Position numbers and translations under genes: made by a program. From a virus (lineage: Duplodnaviria; Caudoviricetes), in IMG/VR virus record IMGVR_UViG_3300031760_000032, positions 15,788-79,787 of that record: a DNA stretch of 64,000 bases; one strand, 5' to 3'. Of this stretch, positions 25,464 through 47,002 are shown piece after piece. The notes beneath the pieces were generated by a model. The model did no database searches and was not told the DNA's origin. It saw only the letters and a list, made by a program, of their open reading frames with translations. Numbering within the stretch: position 1 is the first letter of the stretch; the number at the start of each line of letters is the position of its first letter.

Positions 25464-26174
25464 ATGATGCAGGTAATTAAACGTGACGGTAAGACAATTG
25501 AAGAATTTGATGACAATAAGATACGTACTGCAATTATGAAAGCAGTAGAAGGCTCACATTCTAAGGAAGAGCTTAAAGAGAGATTTGATGAGTCAAAACT
25601 AAACGACTTAATAGCAAAAATCTGGCTTGATATAGTGCTTCAGTGCAATAAGTCTGAATTAATGGATGACAGAGTTGCCATTGAAGTAGAGAAGATTCAG
25701 GATATTGTAGAACGTAATCTTATCAAAGCTGGCTTTGCTGATACTGCTAAAGCATATATCTTATATCGTAGAAAGAGAGACGAAATTCGTAGTACGAGAG
25801 ATAGTATCTCTAAAACAATCTCTGATGTACTTATGAGTGACTCTAAAGACAGTGATACTAAACGTGAGAATGCTAATATTGACGGTAATACAGCTATGGG
25901 TACTATGCTGCAGGTTGGTGCTAATGTATCCAAGAATTATTATCTCAATAATATGATGAGTAAAGATATTGCTAAAGCGCATATTGATGGATATATTCAT
26001 ATTCACGACCTTGACTTCTATAAACTTACAGTTACTTGTTGTCAAATTGATTTTGAGAAACTTGCTAAGGGTGGTTTTAATACAGGTCACGGTTATTTAA
26101 GAGAACCGCAGTCGATTGGCTCTTATGCTACTCTTGCAGCTATTGCAATTCAATCAGACCAAAATGATTGCCAT
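25464..26174 (+). CDS. nrdD: Anaerobic ribonucleoside-triphosphate reductase, exon 1 (includes the ATP-cone)
   Basis: VIKRDG ATP-cone, AHIDGYIHIHDLD; ends at QSDQNDCH. Confidence 0.95.
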
Positions 26175-26636
26175 AGTTTCTGTGGCTCTATTCAGAAATG
26201 AATAGATAAAAACGGCGTGAACCTGTTTATCAGCAGGGTGTAAAAGAATCGTTAAGATTTGAGTAGTAAATGACTCATTAATTCTTTTGCTAACGGGGGA
26301 TACACCAGAATCCCGTGCCAAGCTTCTTCTATAATCTCACTACTATTATATTAGGTGGTGATATTATGATTAAAATAAATGAACTCTATAGCTTAGAGAA
26401 TATATCAGATTGTTATTATGTAAACGATAATCATATTAAAAATACTTATGGTATATTAAGAATAGAGATTATAGAAGATAGAAGGTCTAGAGACTATCGA
26501 AAGGATATATATCTCGCTTAAGGAGATTGAAAACCGAGTAGAGTAGGGCTGAGATTGATACAGACCCAAAGTGCGTCGGAGCTGACCGCTTGAAGGCGAA
26601 GCTCATGATATAGTCCTGGTTATGTAGTGTAACCAG
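26175..26636 (+). mobile_element. Group I intron 1 in nrdD (462 nt)
   Basis: P1 gccaT/Gtggc with U.G wobble; P7 GACTA/TAGTC; P9 ctggtta/taaccag; terminal G; splicing restores NDCH-GGQSIPNFD. Confidence 0.92.
26366..26521 (+). pseudogene. Probable remnant of an intron-encoded endonuclease gene
   Basis: RBS plus a 51-codon ORF in an intron loop that runs into the P7 core. Confidence 0.4.
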
Positions 26637-26944
26637 GGTGGACAATCTATTCCTAATTTTGATTATTCTATGACACCAGGTATCTATAAATCATTCAGAA
26701 AAGCACTAAAACGTAATACTGATAAATTCAATGAGTTTAATGCTGAAGAAGAACTCAGTATAGTAGATAATGATATGAATGACGAATATATTGATAAACT
26801 TCTTGTTGATGATATGGATTGGAATGGTAATCTTAGAAAGATTCTAAATGTCACTAGAAAAGACTTAGAGCGTGAGTGTTATCAAGCTATGGAGGGATTT
26901 GTTCATAATCTTAATACACTTCATTCTAGAGCAGGTGGACAGGT
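26637..26944 (+). CDS. nrdD: nrdD exon 2
   Basis: GGQSIPNFDY...HNLNTLHSRAGGQ(V). Confidence 0.92.
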
Positions 26945-28172
26945 AAAATAAGTTGCCTAGTATAATGGAAACATTATACGGAGTTCGGGCAAAATCGGTG
27001 AAGGCTTGTTTCATATCACATTTGAAAGGTGGTATGATATGTCTATTATAATATCAAATGATTATAAACAAATGATAGTGAACGATTATAGTTCACATGT
27101 TCAAACAATTGAATCTTTAAGTCATAAATATAACTTAAGCCGTCCTACTATAATTAAAATTCTTAAAGAATATAATATACCTACGTATACTAAACAACAA
27201 TTGTATTCTATAGGACTTAAAGAAGATATCTTTAGTGTTATAGATACAGAAGAAAAAGCATACTTTTTAGGATTTTTATTAGCAGATGGATGTGTATTCT
27301 ATGATAAGAATAGATTGAACGCTTCTCCAAAAATATTATTTGGATTAAAAAGTGAAGATTCTTATATGGTAGAATTATTCCATAAGTTTATAAATGCTCA
27401 AACTTCTTTACGAATTGATAATAGGGCTGGTAAAGGCACAGTAAATTGTGTAGTTTCAAGTTTTAAAATGGCTGAAGATTTAAGTTTTATGGCATAGCTA
27501 ATCCAAAATTTCTTAGACCATTACCTATAGTAAGATATGATTTAGTACATCATCTTATTAGAGGTTTCTTTGATGGAGATGGTTGTTTTACATTCAGATT
27601 AGCACATCCAGAACGTAAGATATGTAATTCATATTCTGGAAAAGTCGCTCTTGTAACATATGAGATATTAAAAGAAGATATAATAAGAATACTTGAATGT
27701 ATCGGTATATCTCATTGGCTAACTGAAAGATGTAATAGTCAGATATATTTAGAAATGGTTGATATTAGAAGAAAGGATGAAATAGCTTTATTCTATAATT
27801 TCATATATCAAAATGCTACAATATATCTCACTAGAAAGAAAGAAAAGTTTGAACAGTATTTTCAATTAAATCATATGATATGAAACATGTTAATACCGAG
27901 GTAACTTTATACTTTAACAAGTATAAGAACCGTAACGAGTAGTGGTTGAAACTCTTATAGAGAATATAATACCACCAAGAGTGTCCGACACAATAATCTA
28001 TAGGATTATTCGTTCAATTTCACCGCATTGAATGCCTAACGTTAAACGAGGGTGAAAATCTACTCTGAGCTGGTCTGAATTAACAGACGTATCGTTTTGA
28101 AAATATAAACGTATGAGCGAAATCATAAGCTCCAGAAGTATAGGATAAAGAGCCTATACGATAACATAACTG
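26945..28172 (+). mobile_element. Group I intron 2 in nrdD (1228 nt) with homing endonuclease
   Basis: P1 aggT/Gcct; P7 GAGTAG/CTACTC; terminal G at 28172; splicing restores RAGGQV-PFSSINLGTD. Confidence 0.92.
27039..27883 (+). CDS. LAGLIDADG homing endonuclease with N-terminal HTH, frameshifted at about 27485-27488
   Basis: AYFLGFLLADG in frame 0; LIRGFFDGDG and YLTRKKEKF in the -1 frame. Confidence 0.85.
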
Positions 28173-29457
28173 ACCTTTTTCATCAATCAACTTGGGTACA
28201 GATACTTCTAATGCAGGACGTATGGTTATTAAGAATCTTCTCCTTGCTATGGAAGCTGGATTGGGACATGGTGAAACTTGTATCTTCCCGATTGTAATCT
28301 TTAAGGTAAAAGAAGGAGTAAACTATAATCCAGAAGACCCGAATTATGATTTACTTCAATTATCTTATAGAGTTACTGGTAAGCGTCTGTTTCCTAATTA
28401 CGTATTTCTTGACTCGCCGTTTAATCTTCAATATTATAAACCAGGTCATCCTGAAACTGAAGTAGCACAGATGGGATGTAGAACCCGTGTAATCGGAAAT
28501 GTCTATGACCCGACAAGAGAGATTTCTCACTCTAGAGGTAATCTTTCTTTCACTACAATTAATCTTCCTATGCTTGCTATTGAAGCTAATCATGACGAAA
28601 AGAAATTCTATGAGCTTCTTGATAAGTATTTAGAGCTTGTAAAGAAACAACTCTTAGAAAGATTTGAAATTCAGTCTCATCTTAAGGTAAAGAATCTTCC
28701 TTTCCTTATGGGACAAGGTGTATGGCTTGATTCTGAAAAACTTGGTCCAGAAGATGAAGTTGGAGAAGTACTTAAACACGGTTCTCTTTCTATTGGCTTT
28801 GTTGGACTTGCAGAAGCATTAGTTGCACTATATGGTCATCATCATGGTGAGGGTCAAGAGTATTGGGATAAGGGATATGCTATTGTAAAACATATGAGAG
28901 AGTATACAGATAAGGTAGCTTCTGAAACTCATCTTAATTTCTCTGTACTTGCTACACCTGCAGAAGGTCTGTGTGGTTCTGCATTAAGAAAGTGTAGAGC
29001 TAAGTATGGTGTAATTGAAGGTGTTACAGATAGAGACTATTTCACTAATAGCAATCATATTCCAGTTTATTATAATATTACAGCATATGATAAGATTAGA
29101 CTCGAAGCACCTTTCCATGAACTTACAAATGCAGGTCATATTGCATATATTGAAATCGACGGCGACGCTGCATCTAACGTTAAGGCAATCGAAGCCATTG
29201 TTAAGTGTATGCATGACCAAGGTGTAGGATATGGTGCTATTAATCATCCAGTAGATAGAGACCCTGTATGTGGATATACTGGAGTTATTGGCGATACTTG
29301 TCCTTATTGTGGACGTAAAGAAGAAGACGGTATTAAGTTTGACAGAATCAGACGTGTAACAGGATATCTTTCTGGTACATTAGACACTTTTAATGATGCA
29401 AAGAAGGCTGAAGAAAAAGACCGTGTAAAACATGGTGCTAGATTCCATGAAGAGTAA
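28173..29457 (+). CDS. nrdD: nrdD exon 3
   Basis: MGCRT, ATPAEG, YFTNS, Cys pairs and the RVTGYL glycyl-radical motif. Confidence 0.95.
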
Positions 29458-43008: not shown

Positions 43009-44712
43009 ATGGTTTATTCAAACGTAGTAGAAAAGGAAGCTCTGAGACGTGTTCAGAGCGAAACACTCGCTGTAATCTCAGATGCACTTCTGAAGTCTTT
43101 TGGACCTTATGGTTCTAATTCTATTATTGGTAAGGATGGCGCACTTTCTAGATATACTAAAGATGGTCATACTATTCTTTCTAATCTTCAGTTTGTAGAC
43201 CCAATTGCAAAGGCTGTACATGCTGATATCGAAGAGGAAACACTTGCTCAGGCTAAGAAGGTCGGTGATTCTACAACAAGTATTACACTTCTTTCTTCTG
43301 CTATCTTTGATGCTCTTGCTGGTTATGAAAAAGAGCACAATTATAGACCAGCTTCTATCGTAAAGGCTTTCAAGAATGTAGCTGAAATGATTAAGAATAA
43401 GATTAAGGATTATGGTAGAGAAGCTACTATCGAAGATATGTATAATATTACTCTTATTGCTACTAACGGCGATGAGAACCTTGCTAAGATTCTTAATCAG
43501 GTATACAAAACATATGGTCTTGATGTATATATTGACGTTAAAGCATCTATGAATGGTACTACCTATCTTAAGGAAATCAATGGTATGACAATGGAGTGTG
43601 GTTTCCTTGACCCTACTCTTATTAACGATACTACAAAGAATACAGTAGACATTAAGAATCCTAAGATTTATGCATTCAAGGACCCAATTGATACAGCAGA
43701 GATGGGTATGTTCCTGGATGCTATTCTGGTAAAGAATATTCTTAAACCTATCAGTGAAAAGAAGCCTGAGAATGTAGTACCCACAATTATCATGGCTCCG
43801 AGAATCTCCAGAGATTATTCTGCATATATGGATACTCTGATGGCTTCTATTGCTCAGACACCTGCAGCAAATCGTGGTATTCTAAATATCATCACTGATA
43901 TTCAGGGTTGCGATATGGAACAGTTCGAAGATATTTGTGACCTTTGTGGTTGTAAGTATATTAAGAAGTATCTTGACCCTGAGATTCAGAAGAAGGATAT
44001 CGAATCTGGTCTTGCTCCTACACCAGATAATATCGAGACTTTTGCTGGTGAAGCAGAACTTGTATCTTCTGATGCATATAAGACTACTTTTGTAAATCCT
44101 AAGAAGATGTTTAACTCTAATGGTGAGCATTCAGAGCTTTTCAATCAGAGAACAGATTATCTTCAGAAGCAGATTGATAAGCTGACAGTAGAAGGTAATA
44201 CTACTACAGAAATCTATACTCTTAAGAAGAGACTCAATTCTCTTAAGGGTAAGATGGTTGAAATCTATATCGGTGGTGTTACTATCGCAGACCGTGATGC
44301 AGAACGTGACCTTCTTGAAGATGCAGTACTTAACTGTCGTAGTGCAGCAATTAACGGTGTAGGATATGCAGCAAACTTCGAGGGTTATAGAGCAGCGCTG
44401 TCTGTAACAGAAGATGAGCTTACTGGTATTGAAGCTGATATTGCAGATATTCTGGTTAAGCAGTATTATGAAATCGTATATGCTTTATATGATAGTGTAG
44501 GAGAAGAGGAAATTGATAATCCTCATGAGATTATAGAACAGTGTATCGTTCATGGTTGTCCTTACAATATTACTACTGGTAAGTATGATGGTAAGGTTCT
44601 AACAAGTATTGATACAGATATCTGCATCATTGATACTATCTCTAAGATTATCACTATCATGGTAACTGCAAACCAGTTCATTCTTCCTACAATCAATATG
44701 AATAATTATTAA
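43009..44712 (+). CDS. groEL: Phage GroEL-like chaperonin
   Basis: KSFGPYG, TKDGHTIL and VGDSTTS (GDGTTT-like) motifs; 567 aa. Confidence 0.9.
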   Translation: MVYSNVVEKEALRRVQSETLAVISDALLKSFGPYGSNSIIGKDGALSRYTKDGHTILSNLQFVDPIAKAVHADIEEETLAQAKKVGDSTTSITLLSSAIFDALAGYEKEHNYRPASIVKAFKNVAEMIKNKIKDYGREATIEDMYNITLIATNGDENLAKILNQVYKTYGLDVYIDVKASMNGTTYLKEINGMTMECGFLDPTLINDTTKNTVDIKNPKIYAFKDPIDTAEMGMFLDAILVKNILKPISEKKPENVVPTIIMAPRISRDYSAYMDTLMASIAQTPAANRGILNIITDIQGCDMEQFEDICDLCGCKYIKKYLDPEIQKKDIESGLAPTPDNIETFAGEAELVSSDAYKTTFVNPKKMFNSNGEHSELFNQRTDYLQKQIDKLTVEGNTTTEIYTLKKRLNSLKGKMVEIYIGGVTIADRDAERDLLEDAVLNCRSAAINGVGYAANFEGYRAALSVTEDELTGIEADIADILVKQYYEIVYALYDSVGEEEIDNPHEIIEQCIVHGCPYNITTGKYDGKVLTSIDTDICIIDTISKIITIMVTANQFILPTINMNNY

Positions 44713-44725
44713 TAATACAAAAAAA

Positions 44726-44756
44726 AGAACGGGCTCATTAAGAGCCCGTTCTCTTT
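44726..44756. terminator. Bidirectional terminator
   Basis: agaacgggctc/gagcccgttct stem with A and T flanks. Confidence 0.85.
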
Positions 44757-44764
44757 GTTATTTG

Positions 44765-45220
44765 TCAAATTAAATCATTAAATGAACCACAGAAGCGGTT
44801 CATTTTCTGAAGTGAAACCCACATATCGAGAAAGCATTCTTCTGATTTTTTATTACCATCTACCGCTTCTTTAAAAAGACAGAAGATGGTATTTTCAACT
44901 TGCTCACCGAAAGGACGAGCAAGCTTTATAATCGCCGAGCAATAGCAATCGTCGGCGTTAACTACTCCTGAAAGCTCCCTAATTAAGCTAGGGAACTTAT
45001 TCGAGTGGCTCTTAGCATAACGAGCTACATTAATGATGTCTCTACCAGTTCCGCTGCATATGAATTCTACAGCGTTTTCAAAATTGTAATTATCATCATT
45101 GGCAGAGTCCTCGACTCGCTCGACTACAGCGTTTCCGTCTCTGCAGACATAGACGTATCCATCTACTACAAAGACGGACACATTACTTGTTTTTACTACA
45201 ACCTTAACTTCTCTAGCCAT
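44765..45220 (-). CDS. Hypothetical protein with atypical, GC-richer codon usage
   Basis: AAAGGAG RBS; many CG-containing codons compared with neighbours. Confidence 0.7.
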   Translation of the reverse strand: MAREVKVVVKTSNVSVFVVDGYVYVCRDGNAVVERVEDSANDDNYNFENAVEFICSGTGRDIINVARYAKSHSNKFPSLIRELSGVVNADDCYCSAIIKLARPFGEQVENTIFCLFKEAVDGNKKSEECFLDMWVSLQKMNRFCGSFNDLI

Positions 45221-45442
45221 ATTTATGACTCCTTTGGATAAATTTACTCCTATTTCAGGAGCATAGATAGTTGTTCTGGTTTTAAAGGCTATTCCAGAAA
45301 CCTAGGACGCAACTCCTCTTAGATAGTCTCTCGGTACTTTTAGTGTAGTATGGCTGTCGCTAAGCCTCTACCGAGAGTCCGTGAGTAAAAGATAATGAGT
45401 GGTTCGATGTGACGGCATCGAGATTTATTATCTCTTACTCAC
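45221..45442 (-). ncRNA. Candidate structured 5' leader or ncRNA
   Basis: Five consecutive hairpins between a class A promoter and the RBS. Confidence 0.5.
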
Positions 45443-45454
45443 TTATATTATATA
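45440..45454 (-). promoter_or_regulatory. Class A promoter
   Basis: TATATAAT-ataa-GTG on the - strand. Confidence 0.6.
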
Positions 45455-45501
45455 CATACCAAATATTAAACTTTTACAATCTCGTTATCTTTGATTTCCA
45501 G

Positions 45502-45535: not shown

Positions 45536-47002
45536 ATGGCTTCAACAAGAAAGTATAAGTGTCCATTTTGTAGTAAATCTTTTGAAAGACCTAAGTTAGC
45601 TAGTCATATTGATAAGTATCATGATGACATGTTAAATCCTGATAAAGGATATACTGCAAATAGAATTGTATTTGACATTTGTAATAAGAAAGAACCTATT
45701 GGTGCTGGGCAAGGAGTATGTCGCATTTGTAAGAAACCTACAGAATGGGACGAAGACTCTGTACGTTATAAATCTTATTGCTCTGAAAAATGTAAGCAAC
45801 AGGCTAGAGAGAATTATAAGAATAATATGCTAAGAGTATATGGTAAAACTACTTTACTTGATGATATGGAATGGCAAGAAACTAAGATGCTTGCTAATCG
45901 TTCTATCTCTGGTAAATATCGCTGGTCTGATGGTACATACAAAACTTACGTAGGAAGTTATGAAAAGAAGTTCCTAGAGTTTTGTGATAACGTATTAGGT
46001 ATTAAGTCTGAAGACTTATTAACTCCTGGACCCACTATCTATTATGAGTATGACGGAGAAGAACATACTTGGATTACTGATGCGATTTATCTACCATATA
46101 ATCTTGTATTCGATATCAAAGATGGTGGAGATAATAAGAACAATCGTGAAATGCCAGAATATAGAGCAAAGCAATTAGAGAAAGAGAAGTTTATTACAGA
46201 CCAAGGTGAGTATAATTATATTAGACTTACTAATAATGAGTTTGTTCAGCTTCTTACAATCTTTGCTGAGCTTAAAGAAAACTATATGGATAGCACAGAA
46301 CCTAAGACTATCTCTAGAGTTCATGAGCATATGAGCCCAGCGGGTCCAGGTGGTATGCCAGCTGTAGGTACTGATGTAAATCCTAGTGTATTTATTACCA
46401 ATTATATGAATAAGAATACATTTGAATCTGGATTTGCTATTTCTAATGACGTTACTTCTGAGTATATGATTGCTAGAGATAAGAAATCTGGTAAGCTTAA
46501 GAAAGTAAAGTCTAAAGATTTACTAGAAGATTGTGAATGTGAAACTTATAAGTATATTGGTGATAATATTTCTAATATTCTTAAAGAACTGTATTCTGTA
46601 TATAAAGCTGAGGAATATGTAGACTATCATTATCTACCATGTCTTGTTACAGAGTTTACAGAGATTCTATCAGATGACCAATTAGAATATAGTGAACTAT
46701 TGGAAATGGTGAATTGGGAACAGATTCATGAGAACTTTAATAGTTCTTTAGCTACATTACAGTTCCAATCTGAAGCAATATTAGAAGGTAATAAACCTAT
46801 CGTATTTAATGTATTAGACCCAGTTAAGTATGAGTATAAGAAAAAGCTCTTGAGAGAATATGAAGACTTGACTATTCTACAGAGTTTAAATGGAAAATAC
46901 TTTGGGTATAATAAACTCACTTGTAAAAGAACTAAAGGAGTAGATAGCATATATGATATAACTGAGTGTATGCTTAACTCTATATCTACTAACTCACAAT
47001 AA
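45536..47002 (+). CDS. Zinc-finger protein with a TnsA / T4 gp4-like PD-(D/E)XK nuclease domain
   Basis: C2H2 CPFC..HIDKYH; CRIC..YCSEKC; YVGSYEKKF...ITD....FDIKDG. Confidence 0.6.
   Translation: MASTRKYKCPFCSKSFERPKLASHIDKYHDDMLNPDKGYTANRIVFDICNKKEPIGAGQGVCRICKKPTEWDEDSVRYKSYCSEKCKQQARENYKNNMLRVYGKTTLLDDMEWQETKMLANRSISGKYRWSDGTYKTYVGSYEKKFLEFCDNVLGIKSEDLLTPGPTIYYEYDGEEHTWITDAIYLPYNLVFDIKDGGDNKNNREMPEYRAKQLEKEKFITDQGEYNYIRLTNNEFVQLLTIFAELKENYMDSTEPKTISRVHEHMSPAGPGGMPAVGTDVNPSVFITNYMNKNTFESGFAISNDVTSEYMIARDKKSGKLKKVKSKDLLEDCECETYKYIGDNISNILKELYSVYKAEEYVDYHYLPCLVTEFTEILSDDQLEYSELLEMVNWEQIHENFNSSLATLQFQSEAILEGNKPIVFNVLDPVKYEYKKKLLREYEDLTILQSLNGKYFGYNKLTCKRTKGVDSIYDITECMLNSISTNSQ

Follow-up and report, generated by a model that had tools for sequence, protein, structure and literature searches.

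What lies in the 315-nt gap between two divergent genes of a rumen jumbo phage, and at what level does it act? The window analysed here, a stretch of 64,000 nt, was drawn from a 79.8-kb IMG/VR virus record with an estimated completeness of 36%. Complete relatives have genomes of 212–231 kb with terminal repeats, and homologues of the element described below come from uncultivated rumen jumbo phages of ~220 kb. The gap separates a 488-aa gene (45536–47002, plus strand) from a 151-aa open reading frame (ORF; 44765–45220, minus strand) and holds a promoter, five stems, and an AAGGAG Shine-Dalgarno (SD) sequence. An initial annotation had seen here a multi-hairpin leader ahead of a compositionally foreign gene, and offered a riboswitch, a thermometer, a protein-binding autoregulatory leader, or an independent sRNA as candidate functions. 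To our knowledge, few phage 5' leaders are structured and strongly supported by covariation, and we know of almost nothing on post-transcriptional control in jumbo phages with their own RNA polymerases. The features of the locus, read 5' to 3' along the minus strand, are as follows.

45447–45479, minus strand: promoter, with TTGTAA at 45474–45479, a 21-nt spacer, and TATAAT at 45447–45452 (TATATAAT at 45447–45454)
45381–45442, minus strand: 5'-terminal hairpin P1, with arms 45427–45442 and 45381–45396
45416–45421 and 45404–45409, minus strand: P1a, nested in P1 (tcgatg/catcga), with loop CCGUCA
45397–45402, minus strand: internal loop CCACUC of P1
45369–45377 and 45328–45336, minus strand: P2, which encloses P2a
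45363–45366 and 45352–45355, minus strand: P2a (ggct/agcc), with loop UAGCGAC at 45356–45362
45337–45351, minus strand: conserved single strand AUACUACAC.. inside P2
45314–45317 and 45304–45307, minus strand: P3 (AGGA/UCCU), its loop with a conserved UUGC
45300–45303 and 45286–45289, minus strand: tentative H-type pseudoknot, AGGU with GCCU of the P4 loop
45294–45299 and 45274–45279, minus strand: P4, with a highly conserved 14-nt loop AAUAGCCUUUAAAA at 45280–45293
45258–45266, minus strand: conserved CUAUGCUCC
45257–45262 and 45246–45251, minus strand: P5 (GCUCCU/AGGAGU), an anti-SD-like arm facing an SD-like decoy arm
45235–45245, minus strand: A/U-rich spacer
45229–45234, minus strand: SD sequence AAGGAG
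45225–45230 and 45215–45220, minus strand: weak hairpin P6 (AGUCAU/AUGGCU), enclosing the ATG at 45218–45220
44765–45220, minus strand: orphan 151-aa protein, from a family of 43 members
44722–44756, minus strand: strong bidirectional intrinsic terminator, a 15-bp stem with 7 GC pairs followed by a T-run

The minimum free energy (MFE) fold recovers all five stems on the minus strand at the coordinates first proposed for them. Its energy is −67.9 kcal/mol, against −47.1 ± 3.9 kcal/mol for shuffled sequences (z = −5.3), and none of 200 dinucleotide shuffles matched it; the opposite strand gives an equally good in silico fold (z = −5.4). The core stem of P5 pairs 45257–45261 with 45247–45251, and its 3' arm AGGAG lies ~12 nt 5' of the true AAGGAG, in agreement with the SD-like arm noted earlier just upstream of the real ribosome-binding site (RBS). 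The leader carries no sense-strand ORF of at least 20 aa, as had been stated. Its GC content (0.405, and 0.444 in the core formed by P2, P2a, P3, and P4) exceeds that of the window (0.329), which upholds the claim of a GC-rich region; the description of the gene itself as foreign holds only mildly (0.399 for ORF 44765–45220).

Homologues were collected by several routes. The downstream protein had three relatives at first and 43 with an alignment query, the 488-aa neighbour led to 23 viral loci, a metagenome scan for the leader motif added six loci, and look-ups of family proteins added more. The result was 14 distinct full-length leaders (the window, L002, L003, L057, L058, L059, L198, L202, L209, L210, L212, L214, L215, and L216). 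They sit between the chaperonin and 488-aa genes, with the exceptions of L202 and L216, which have another gene upstream. Four close sequences served to build a covariance model for the core (P2, P2a, P3, and P4), which finds every homologue, with scores of 37–167 bits, and nothing else in ~800 kb of collected DNA.

The initial annotation had named an absence of covariation or conservation as grounds for rejecting the leader, and both are present. Within the 14-sequence alignment, 98.7% of core cells form standard pairs and 16 of 22 core pairs show compensatory, both-side changes (14 of 22 in an 8-sequence set). No core shuffle out of 500 reached any of the five measures, and sliding the pairing partner by 1–3 columns as a control lowered pairing to 29–46% and compensated pairs to 0–3. 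The changes are spread over all four helices: compensatory changes occur in six of eight pairs in P2, three of four in P2a, three of four in P3 (AGGA/UCCU, AAGC/GCUU, AGGC/GCCU, and AAUCCA/UGGAUU), and four of six in P4, and every cell pairs in P2, P3, and P4. These counts come from an alignment that was fitted to the structure by the covariance model and that samples ~4–5 lineages, so that independent compensatory events are fewer than the cell counts suggest. An all-against-all column scan returned many spurious covarying pairs, as expected from so few lineages, and covariation of single pairs was therefore not used as evidence. The convincing evidence is instead the presence of contiguous, fully paired helices whose sequence differs from lineage to lineage.

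The strand on which the structure acts is given by its G-U pairs. The helices hold 25 G-U cells across the 14 sequences (14 cells in the 8-sequence set), each of which becomes an A-C mismatch on the other strand, and the structure thus belongs to the sense-strand RNA of the gene. Selection on this RNA is concentrated in its unpaired parts. Invariant columns make up 44 of 69 unpaired core positions (64%) and 13 of 44 paired positions (30%), and the P2a loop (U)RGCGAC and the CUACA motif are both kept in 13 of 14 leaders. Since conservation is higher in loops and junctions than in stems, the core appears to require a specific fold, most likely one recognised by a factor; selection of this kind is seen in RNAs that have a binding partner or adopt a specific tertiary structure. 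Between homologues, nucleotide identity is 65–98% in the core and 50–69% in the coding sequence, with protein identity of 26–55%; for L057 and L198 the values are 96%, 60%, and 42%, respectively. The better conservation of the core implies stronger purifying selection on the RNA than on the gene. The leader is a genuine, selectively maintained structured RNA, a defined module of ~130 nt, with or without its flanking hairpins, that is conserved more than the hypervariable gene it precedes.

We searched databases and the literature to see if this RNA had been recognised before. Against Rfam 15 (4,227 covariance models), the window leader has no match at the gathering score or at E ≤ 10, which agrees with the earlier remark that no known Rfam motif could be seen, and no match overlaps the leaders of L209, L216, L211, or L202. 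The whole window (1–64000, including 25464–29457) contains no Rfam family at gathering thresholds, intron models included, and a tRNA/tmRNA scan found none. With blastn, no match to the locus was found among 50,697 phage records, a close-peptide scan of viral contigs found nothing, and a covariance-model search of ~80 loci from a short-motif scan recovered only the known locus. A motif scan of 185,579 prokaryote genomes gave 0 matches, so no host or prophage copy was seen. A literature search found no description of this leader. The leader is therefore novel with respect to Rfam, the phage collection, and the prokaryote genomes searched, and it belongs to a known kind, the structured cis-acting leaders.

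The position of the leader between a promoter and the RBS of ORF 44765–45220 was confirmed (TTGTAA, 21 nt, TATAAT; AAGGAG). The window promoter, TATATAAT-ATAAGT-G, fits the early-promoter format of phage AR9, TATATTAT-(6N)-G(+1), and TGTAAAAG..TATATATAAT is retained by all 14 homologues, including those whose upstream surroundings are different. The AR9 early-promoter consensus is AAATATATATTAT-(6N)-G(+1) (PMC5312081); with GTATGTATATAAT-ATAAGT-G in the window and TATATATAAT-6N-G/A in relatives, these promoters lie near the consensus, yet they are also sigma-70-like. From the fit to the AR9 consensus, transcription is predicted to start at G45440, within the 5' arm of P1, which would give a leader of 220 nt. 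Across the window the string TATATAAT-6N-G is not enriched (6 occurrences, 3.5 expected). Leader and ORF are probably co-transcribed. No sense-strand terminator was called in 45221–45442; the sole strong one lies 3' of the ORF, at 44722–44756, where it closes the cassette and is common to the convergent chaperonin gene. In AR9, a Bacillus jumbo phage, early 5' UTRs are 26–491 nt long and contain motifs of unknown function, and translational control has been proposed for them (PMC5312081, Lavysh et al. 2017). The present leader has in common with them an early-type AT-rich promoter, a start site 6 nt downstream (predicted here), and an unusual length. It differs in that a search of the phage collection found no sequence or structure homology, and in that its secondary structure is supported by covariation.

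A 5' hairpin is present in all 14 leaders and always begins 0–4 nt from the predicted +1. L214 and L216 build it from a different sequence; in L202, P1 is simplified, with the nested hairpin deleted and only the CCACUC loop kept. The nested P1a occurs in compensatory variants (UCGAUG/CAUCGA, UCGAUAG/CUAUCGA, and UCGGUAG/CUACCGA). Matches to the P1 5' arm elsewhere in the window are coding or RBS coincidences. In Gram-positive bacteria, 5'-terminal hairpins stabilise transcripts such as the aprE and ermC leaders of B. subtilis. P1 resembles these stabilisers in being a stable stem-loop near the predicted 5' end whose structure is kept and whose sequence is replaceable; the likeness covers P1 only, and not the conserved core. 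The pattern most likely reflects a structural role such as protection of the 5' end.

Within the core of every lineage, the P4 loop could pair with four nucleotides lying 5' of P4 (GGGU/GCCC, GGGU/ACCC, AGGU/GCCU, and AGAGU/GCUCU). This complementarity is suggestive of an H-type pseudoknot whose loop has an A-rich tail. In formal tests the pseudoknot did not reach significance, either by count (113 of 500 shuffles were as good) or in a shuffle test on L216 (P = 0.135), and it is accordingly kept as tentative. Pseudoknots are found in the autoregulatory leader of T4 gene 32 and in H-type aptamers such as preQ1-II and SAM-II. As in those RNAs, a structured element, here possibly a pseudoknot, lies 5' of an A/U-rich stretch and the RBS and has conserved loop nucleotides. 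The differences are that there is no Rfam similarity, that the pseudoknot here is tentative, and that the SD lies ~50 nt 3' of it, behind another hairpin. Unlike T4 gene 32, the gene behind this leader encodes no ssDNA-binding protein.

At the output end, P5 is present in 14 of 14 leaders, with compensated variants (GCUCC/GGAGU, GUUCC/GGAAC, UGCUC/GAGCA, and GCUCCUC/GAGGAGU). In 11 of the 14 the start codon is enclosed by a local hairpin, which in L214 takes a compensated 8-bp form, and the other three have a hairpin at the SD. In those 11, the SD stands within an open A/U-rich stretch and only the AUG is in a weak hairpin. The conserved AUG in CUAUGCUCC has no SD and opens a frame of 3–14 codons that varies in phase and in some cases runs in frame into the main ORF; given this variability and the missing SD, an upstream coding ORF was rejected.

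The reading that we favour, at a probability of roughly two in three, is that of a cis-acting mRNA leader that controls stability and translation and whose core is probably bound by a trans-acting factor. The region would be the ~220-nt 5' UTR of an early accessory-gene mRNA in an AR9-like rumen jumbo phage, built from three modules. In the first, an early-type phage promoter would yield a transcript that opens directly with the stable hairpin P1, which most likely shields the 5' end of the mRNA from decay. The second is the four-helix core (P2, P2a, P3, and P4), perhaps tied by the small pseudoknot; its specific shape is most likely recognised by a trans-acting factor, for which a phage or host protein is favoured over a metabolite. 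The third would be the output, composed of P5 with its CUCC anti-SD-like arm and GGAG decoy, the A/U-rich spacer, the true SD, and the weak SD/start-codon hairpin. We infer that occupancy or folding of the core may shift P5 and change access to the RBS, which in turn would set the dose of a fast-evolving protein. If the core does bind a factor or ligand, it would show how such phages time or dose an early protein of the arms-race type. If it serves only to stabilise the mRNA, it would be an ordinary though elaborate leader.

All 14 cores precede one orphan protein family, and the core was never seen without that gene. It is single-copy in its own record and in both complete relatives that carry it, out of five complete relatives examined, which disposes of the idea of a known repeat element; the whole cassette is absent from L066–L069, L077, and L079. 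Other members of the same family follow different structured leaders at this locus (type II in L004, L211, and L213; type III in L063/G004), which means that the core is not indispensable for expression of the family. Leaders of types I–III share the promoter, a 5' hairpin starting GUGA(A/G)UA.., and the motif CUAUGYUCC 10–45 nt before the SD. A few other leaders of the early type, at further sites in related genomes, have this 5' module and CUAUGYUCC as well. P1 and the 3' part are shared or swapped among early leaders, a modularity absent from the initial annotation. CUAUGYUCC is over-represented in five complete relatives (G001–G005; 37 matches, compared with 5 for the reversed control), and about 8 of 20 inspected sites lie in early-type leaders; in the window itself TATGYTCC is not enriched (5 occurrences, 3.9 expected). 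From these sequence comparisons, the leader appears to be a mosaic with shared ends and an exchangeable middle, of which the type I core is the version specific to the gene family. This build may show how recombination puts early-gene leaders together, with the promoter and 5' hairpin in common, a middle that can be exchanged, and a common CUAUGYUCC/SD end.

The strict linkage invites an autoregulatory explanation, in which the C-terminal helical domain of the encoded protein binds the core of its own leader and represses translation. Autogenous translational control has phage precedents in T4 gp32, gp43, and RegA, the core and the protein family co-occur in 14 of 14 cases, and the core is more conserved than the variable part of the protein, the C-terminal domain of which is conserved. 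Family members vary in an N-terminal beta-hairpin region and in an insert, and share this helical domain (YAKxHxNxF..VNADDxYCxAIIKLxR). The 151-aa protein belongs to no Pfam or PHROG family; its AF2 model has a pLDDT of 77, a Foldseek search of the PDB gave no match at E ≤ 0.001, and the best hit in a VIA wide structure search (Z = 4.8) was an uninformative generic helical bundle. No recognisable RNA- or nucleic-acid-binding fold or motif was thus found in it by Pfam, PHROG, or structure searches, and this, together with the family members that have type II or III leaders and no core, makes autoregulation unlikely.

A metabolite-sensing riboswitch, with P2–P4 and the pseudoknot as aptamer and P5 plus the SD/AUG hairpin as translational expression platform, would account for covarying stems with near-invariant loops and junctions, as is generic for aptamers. 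It would also account for the possible H-type pseudoknot with its A-rich tail, for the anti-SD/decoy hairpin adjoining the SD, and for the MFE ensembles of several homologues, in which the SD is sequestered. Several features speak against it. The motif occurs at one locus, before one orphan gene family, in one phage clade, and members of that family also use unrelated leaders. It bears no likeness to any Rfam riboswitch, and the absence of any family or fold match means that the protein offers no clue to a ligand. Nor is an alternative pairing backed by covariation: no mutually exclusive pairing between core and SD was found to have such support in all lineages. Four candidate pairings were examined and rejected. 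GACUCC (5' of P2) with GGAGUC (the SD) appears in several MFE folds, is uncompensated in L003, and is absent in L058, L198, and L216; for a GUAG/CUAC switch against inner P2, the CUACA is lost in L216; a GCAUA/UAUGC pairing is not conserved; and a pairing of the P1 5' arm with a distal UUAUCU is lost in L202, L214, and L216. We consider a metabolite riboswitch rather improbable. A broader version, in which the P2–P4 core represents a new class of aptamer, acting as a riboswitch or sensing some factor of the phage or host, and gates translation of a diversifying early protein possibly involved in counter-defence, is just as doubtful; if true, it would mean that an AR9-like jumbo phage gates translation by the state of the infected cell.

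An independent or dual-function noncoding RNA (a decoy, sponge, or anti-defence RNA), with the gene expressed by read-through, is highly improbable. Such an RNA would explain why the core is so much better conserved than the gene behind it, and the leader is bounded by hairpins of its own at the 5' end and, ahead of an A/U-rich tract, at the 3' end (P5), and occupies a variable accessory locus between conserved genes. P5 is short, however, and AAAUUU, not a U-run, comes after it; no GC-rich stem with a U-run, as an attenuator or a free sRNA would have, lies between leader and ORF, and the core does not occur without the gene. A thermometer is also unlikely, in that the SD lies outside any ROSE/fourU-type stem, no fourU or ROSE element is present, and the source is the rumen. 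Of the initial proposal, a structured and conserved RNA stands, and the thermometer and the independent sRNA lose most of their appeal. Palindromes arisen by chance, or an element acting at the DNA level (an origin, the end of a mobile element, or an inverted repeat bound by protein), for which the equal folding of both strands in silico could be cited, are effectively refuted by compensatory changes in 16 of 22 pairs and by G-U pairs that work on the sense strand only, and stems that vary around conserved loops and a single copy with no repeat family point the same way.

Several observations concern the other leader types and the surrounding genes. Type II leaders (L004:300-475, L211:540-703, and L213:540-703) have a different and shorter middle. 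Their order is a 5' hairpin, a GACCG-GUAGGGCAUA-CGGUC hairpin, a hairpin ending CUAUGUUCC, and a CCUC/GAGG hairpin just before the SD; the loop GGGC of the GACCG-GUAGGGCAUA-CGGUC hairpin could pair with a downstream GCCC. Type III leaders (L063:2230-2428, minus strand, and L250–L253 in G003) begin GUGAGUAGGAGAUAG.. and end GGAACAG..CUAUGUUCC-N9-14-AGGAGG. The complete genome G003 holds at least four paralogous copies of type III (L250–L253) before unrelated genes, and G004 has one copy at the leader locus, before a distant member of the protein family. Three orthologous CUAUGYUCC sites lie within the loop of a terminator hairpin, CCCGCAGGACU-CUAUGUUCC-UGCGGGG. One type I leader, L210:440-700, is a recombinant: its P2/P2a come from the window lineage, although its P2a loop is only AGCGA, and its P3–P5 from the other lineage, so that recombination breakpoints fall within the leader.

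Both neighbours of the cassette are well-conserved phage genes. The convergent gene at 43009–44712 (plus strand) encodes a 567-aa chaperonin of the Cpn60/TCP-1 family (Pfam E = 1e-19) and is kept in all relatives. The 488-aa protein (45536–47002, plus strand), transcribed divergently from the leader, has N-terminal zinc-finger-like motifs and matches a PHROG 'endonuclease' (phrog_15137, E = 8e-32), with 65–98% identity over 23 related loci. In one lineage (L202:2073-2945, plus strand), an inserted extra gene separates the 488-aa gene from the leader cassette. It codes for a 290-aa protein with a long Lys/Glu-rich repeat (EEERKRKEEE...) and has its own terminator, and the promoter and leader downstream of it are intact.
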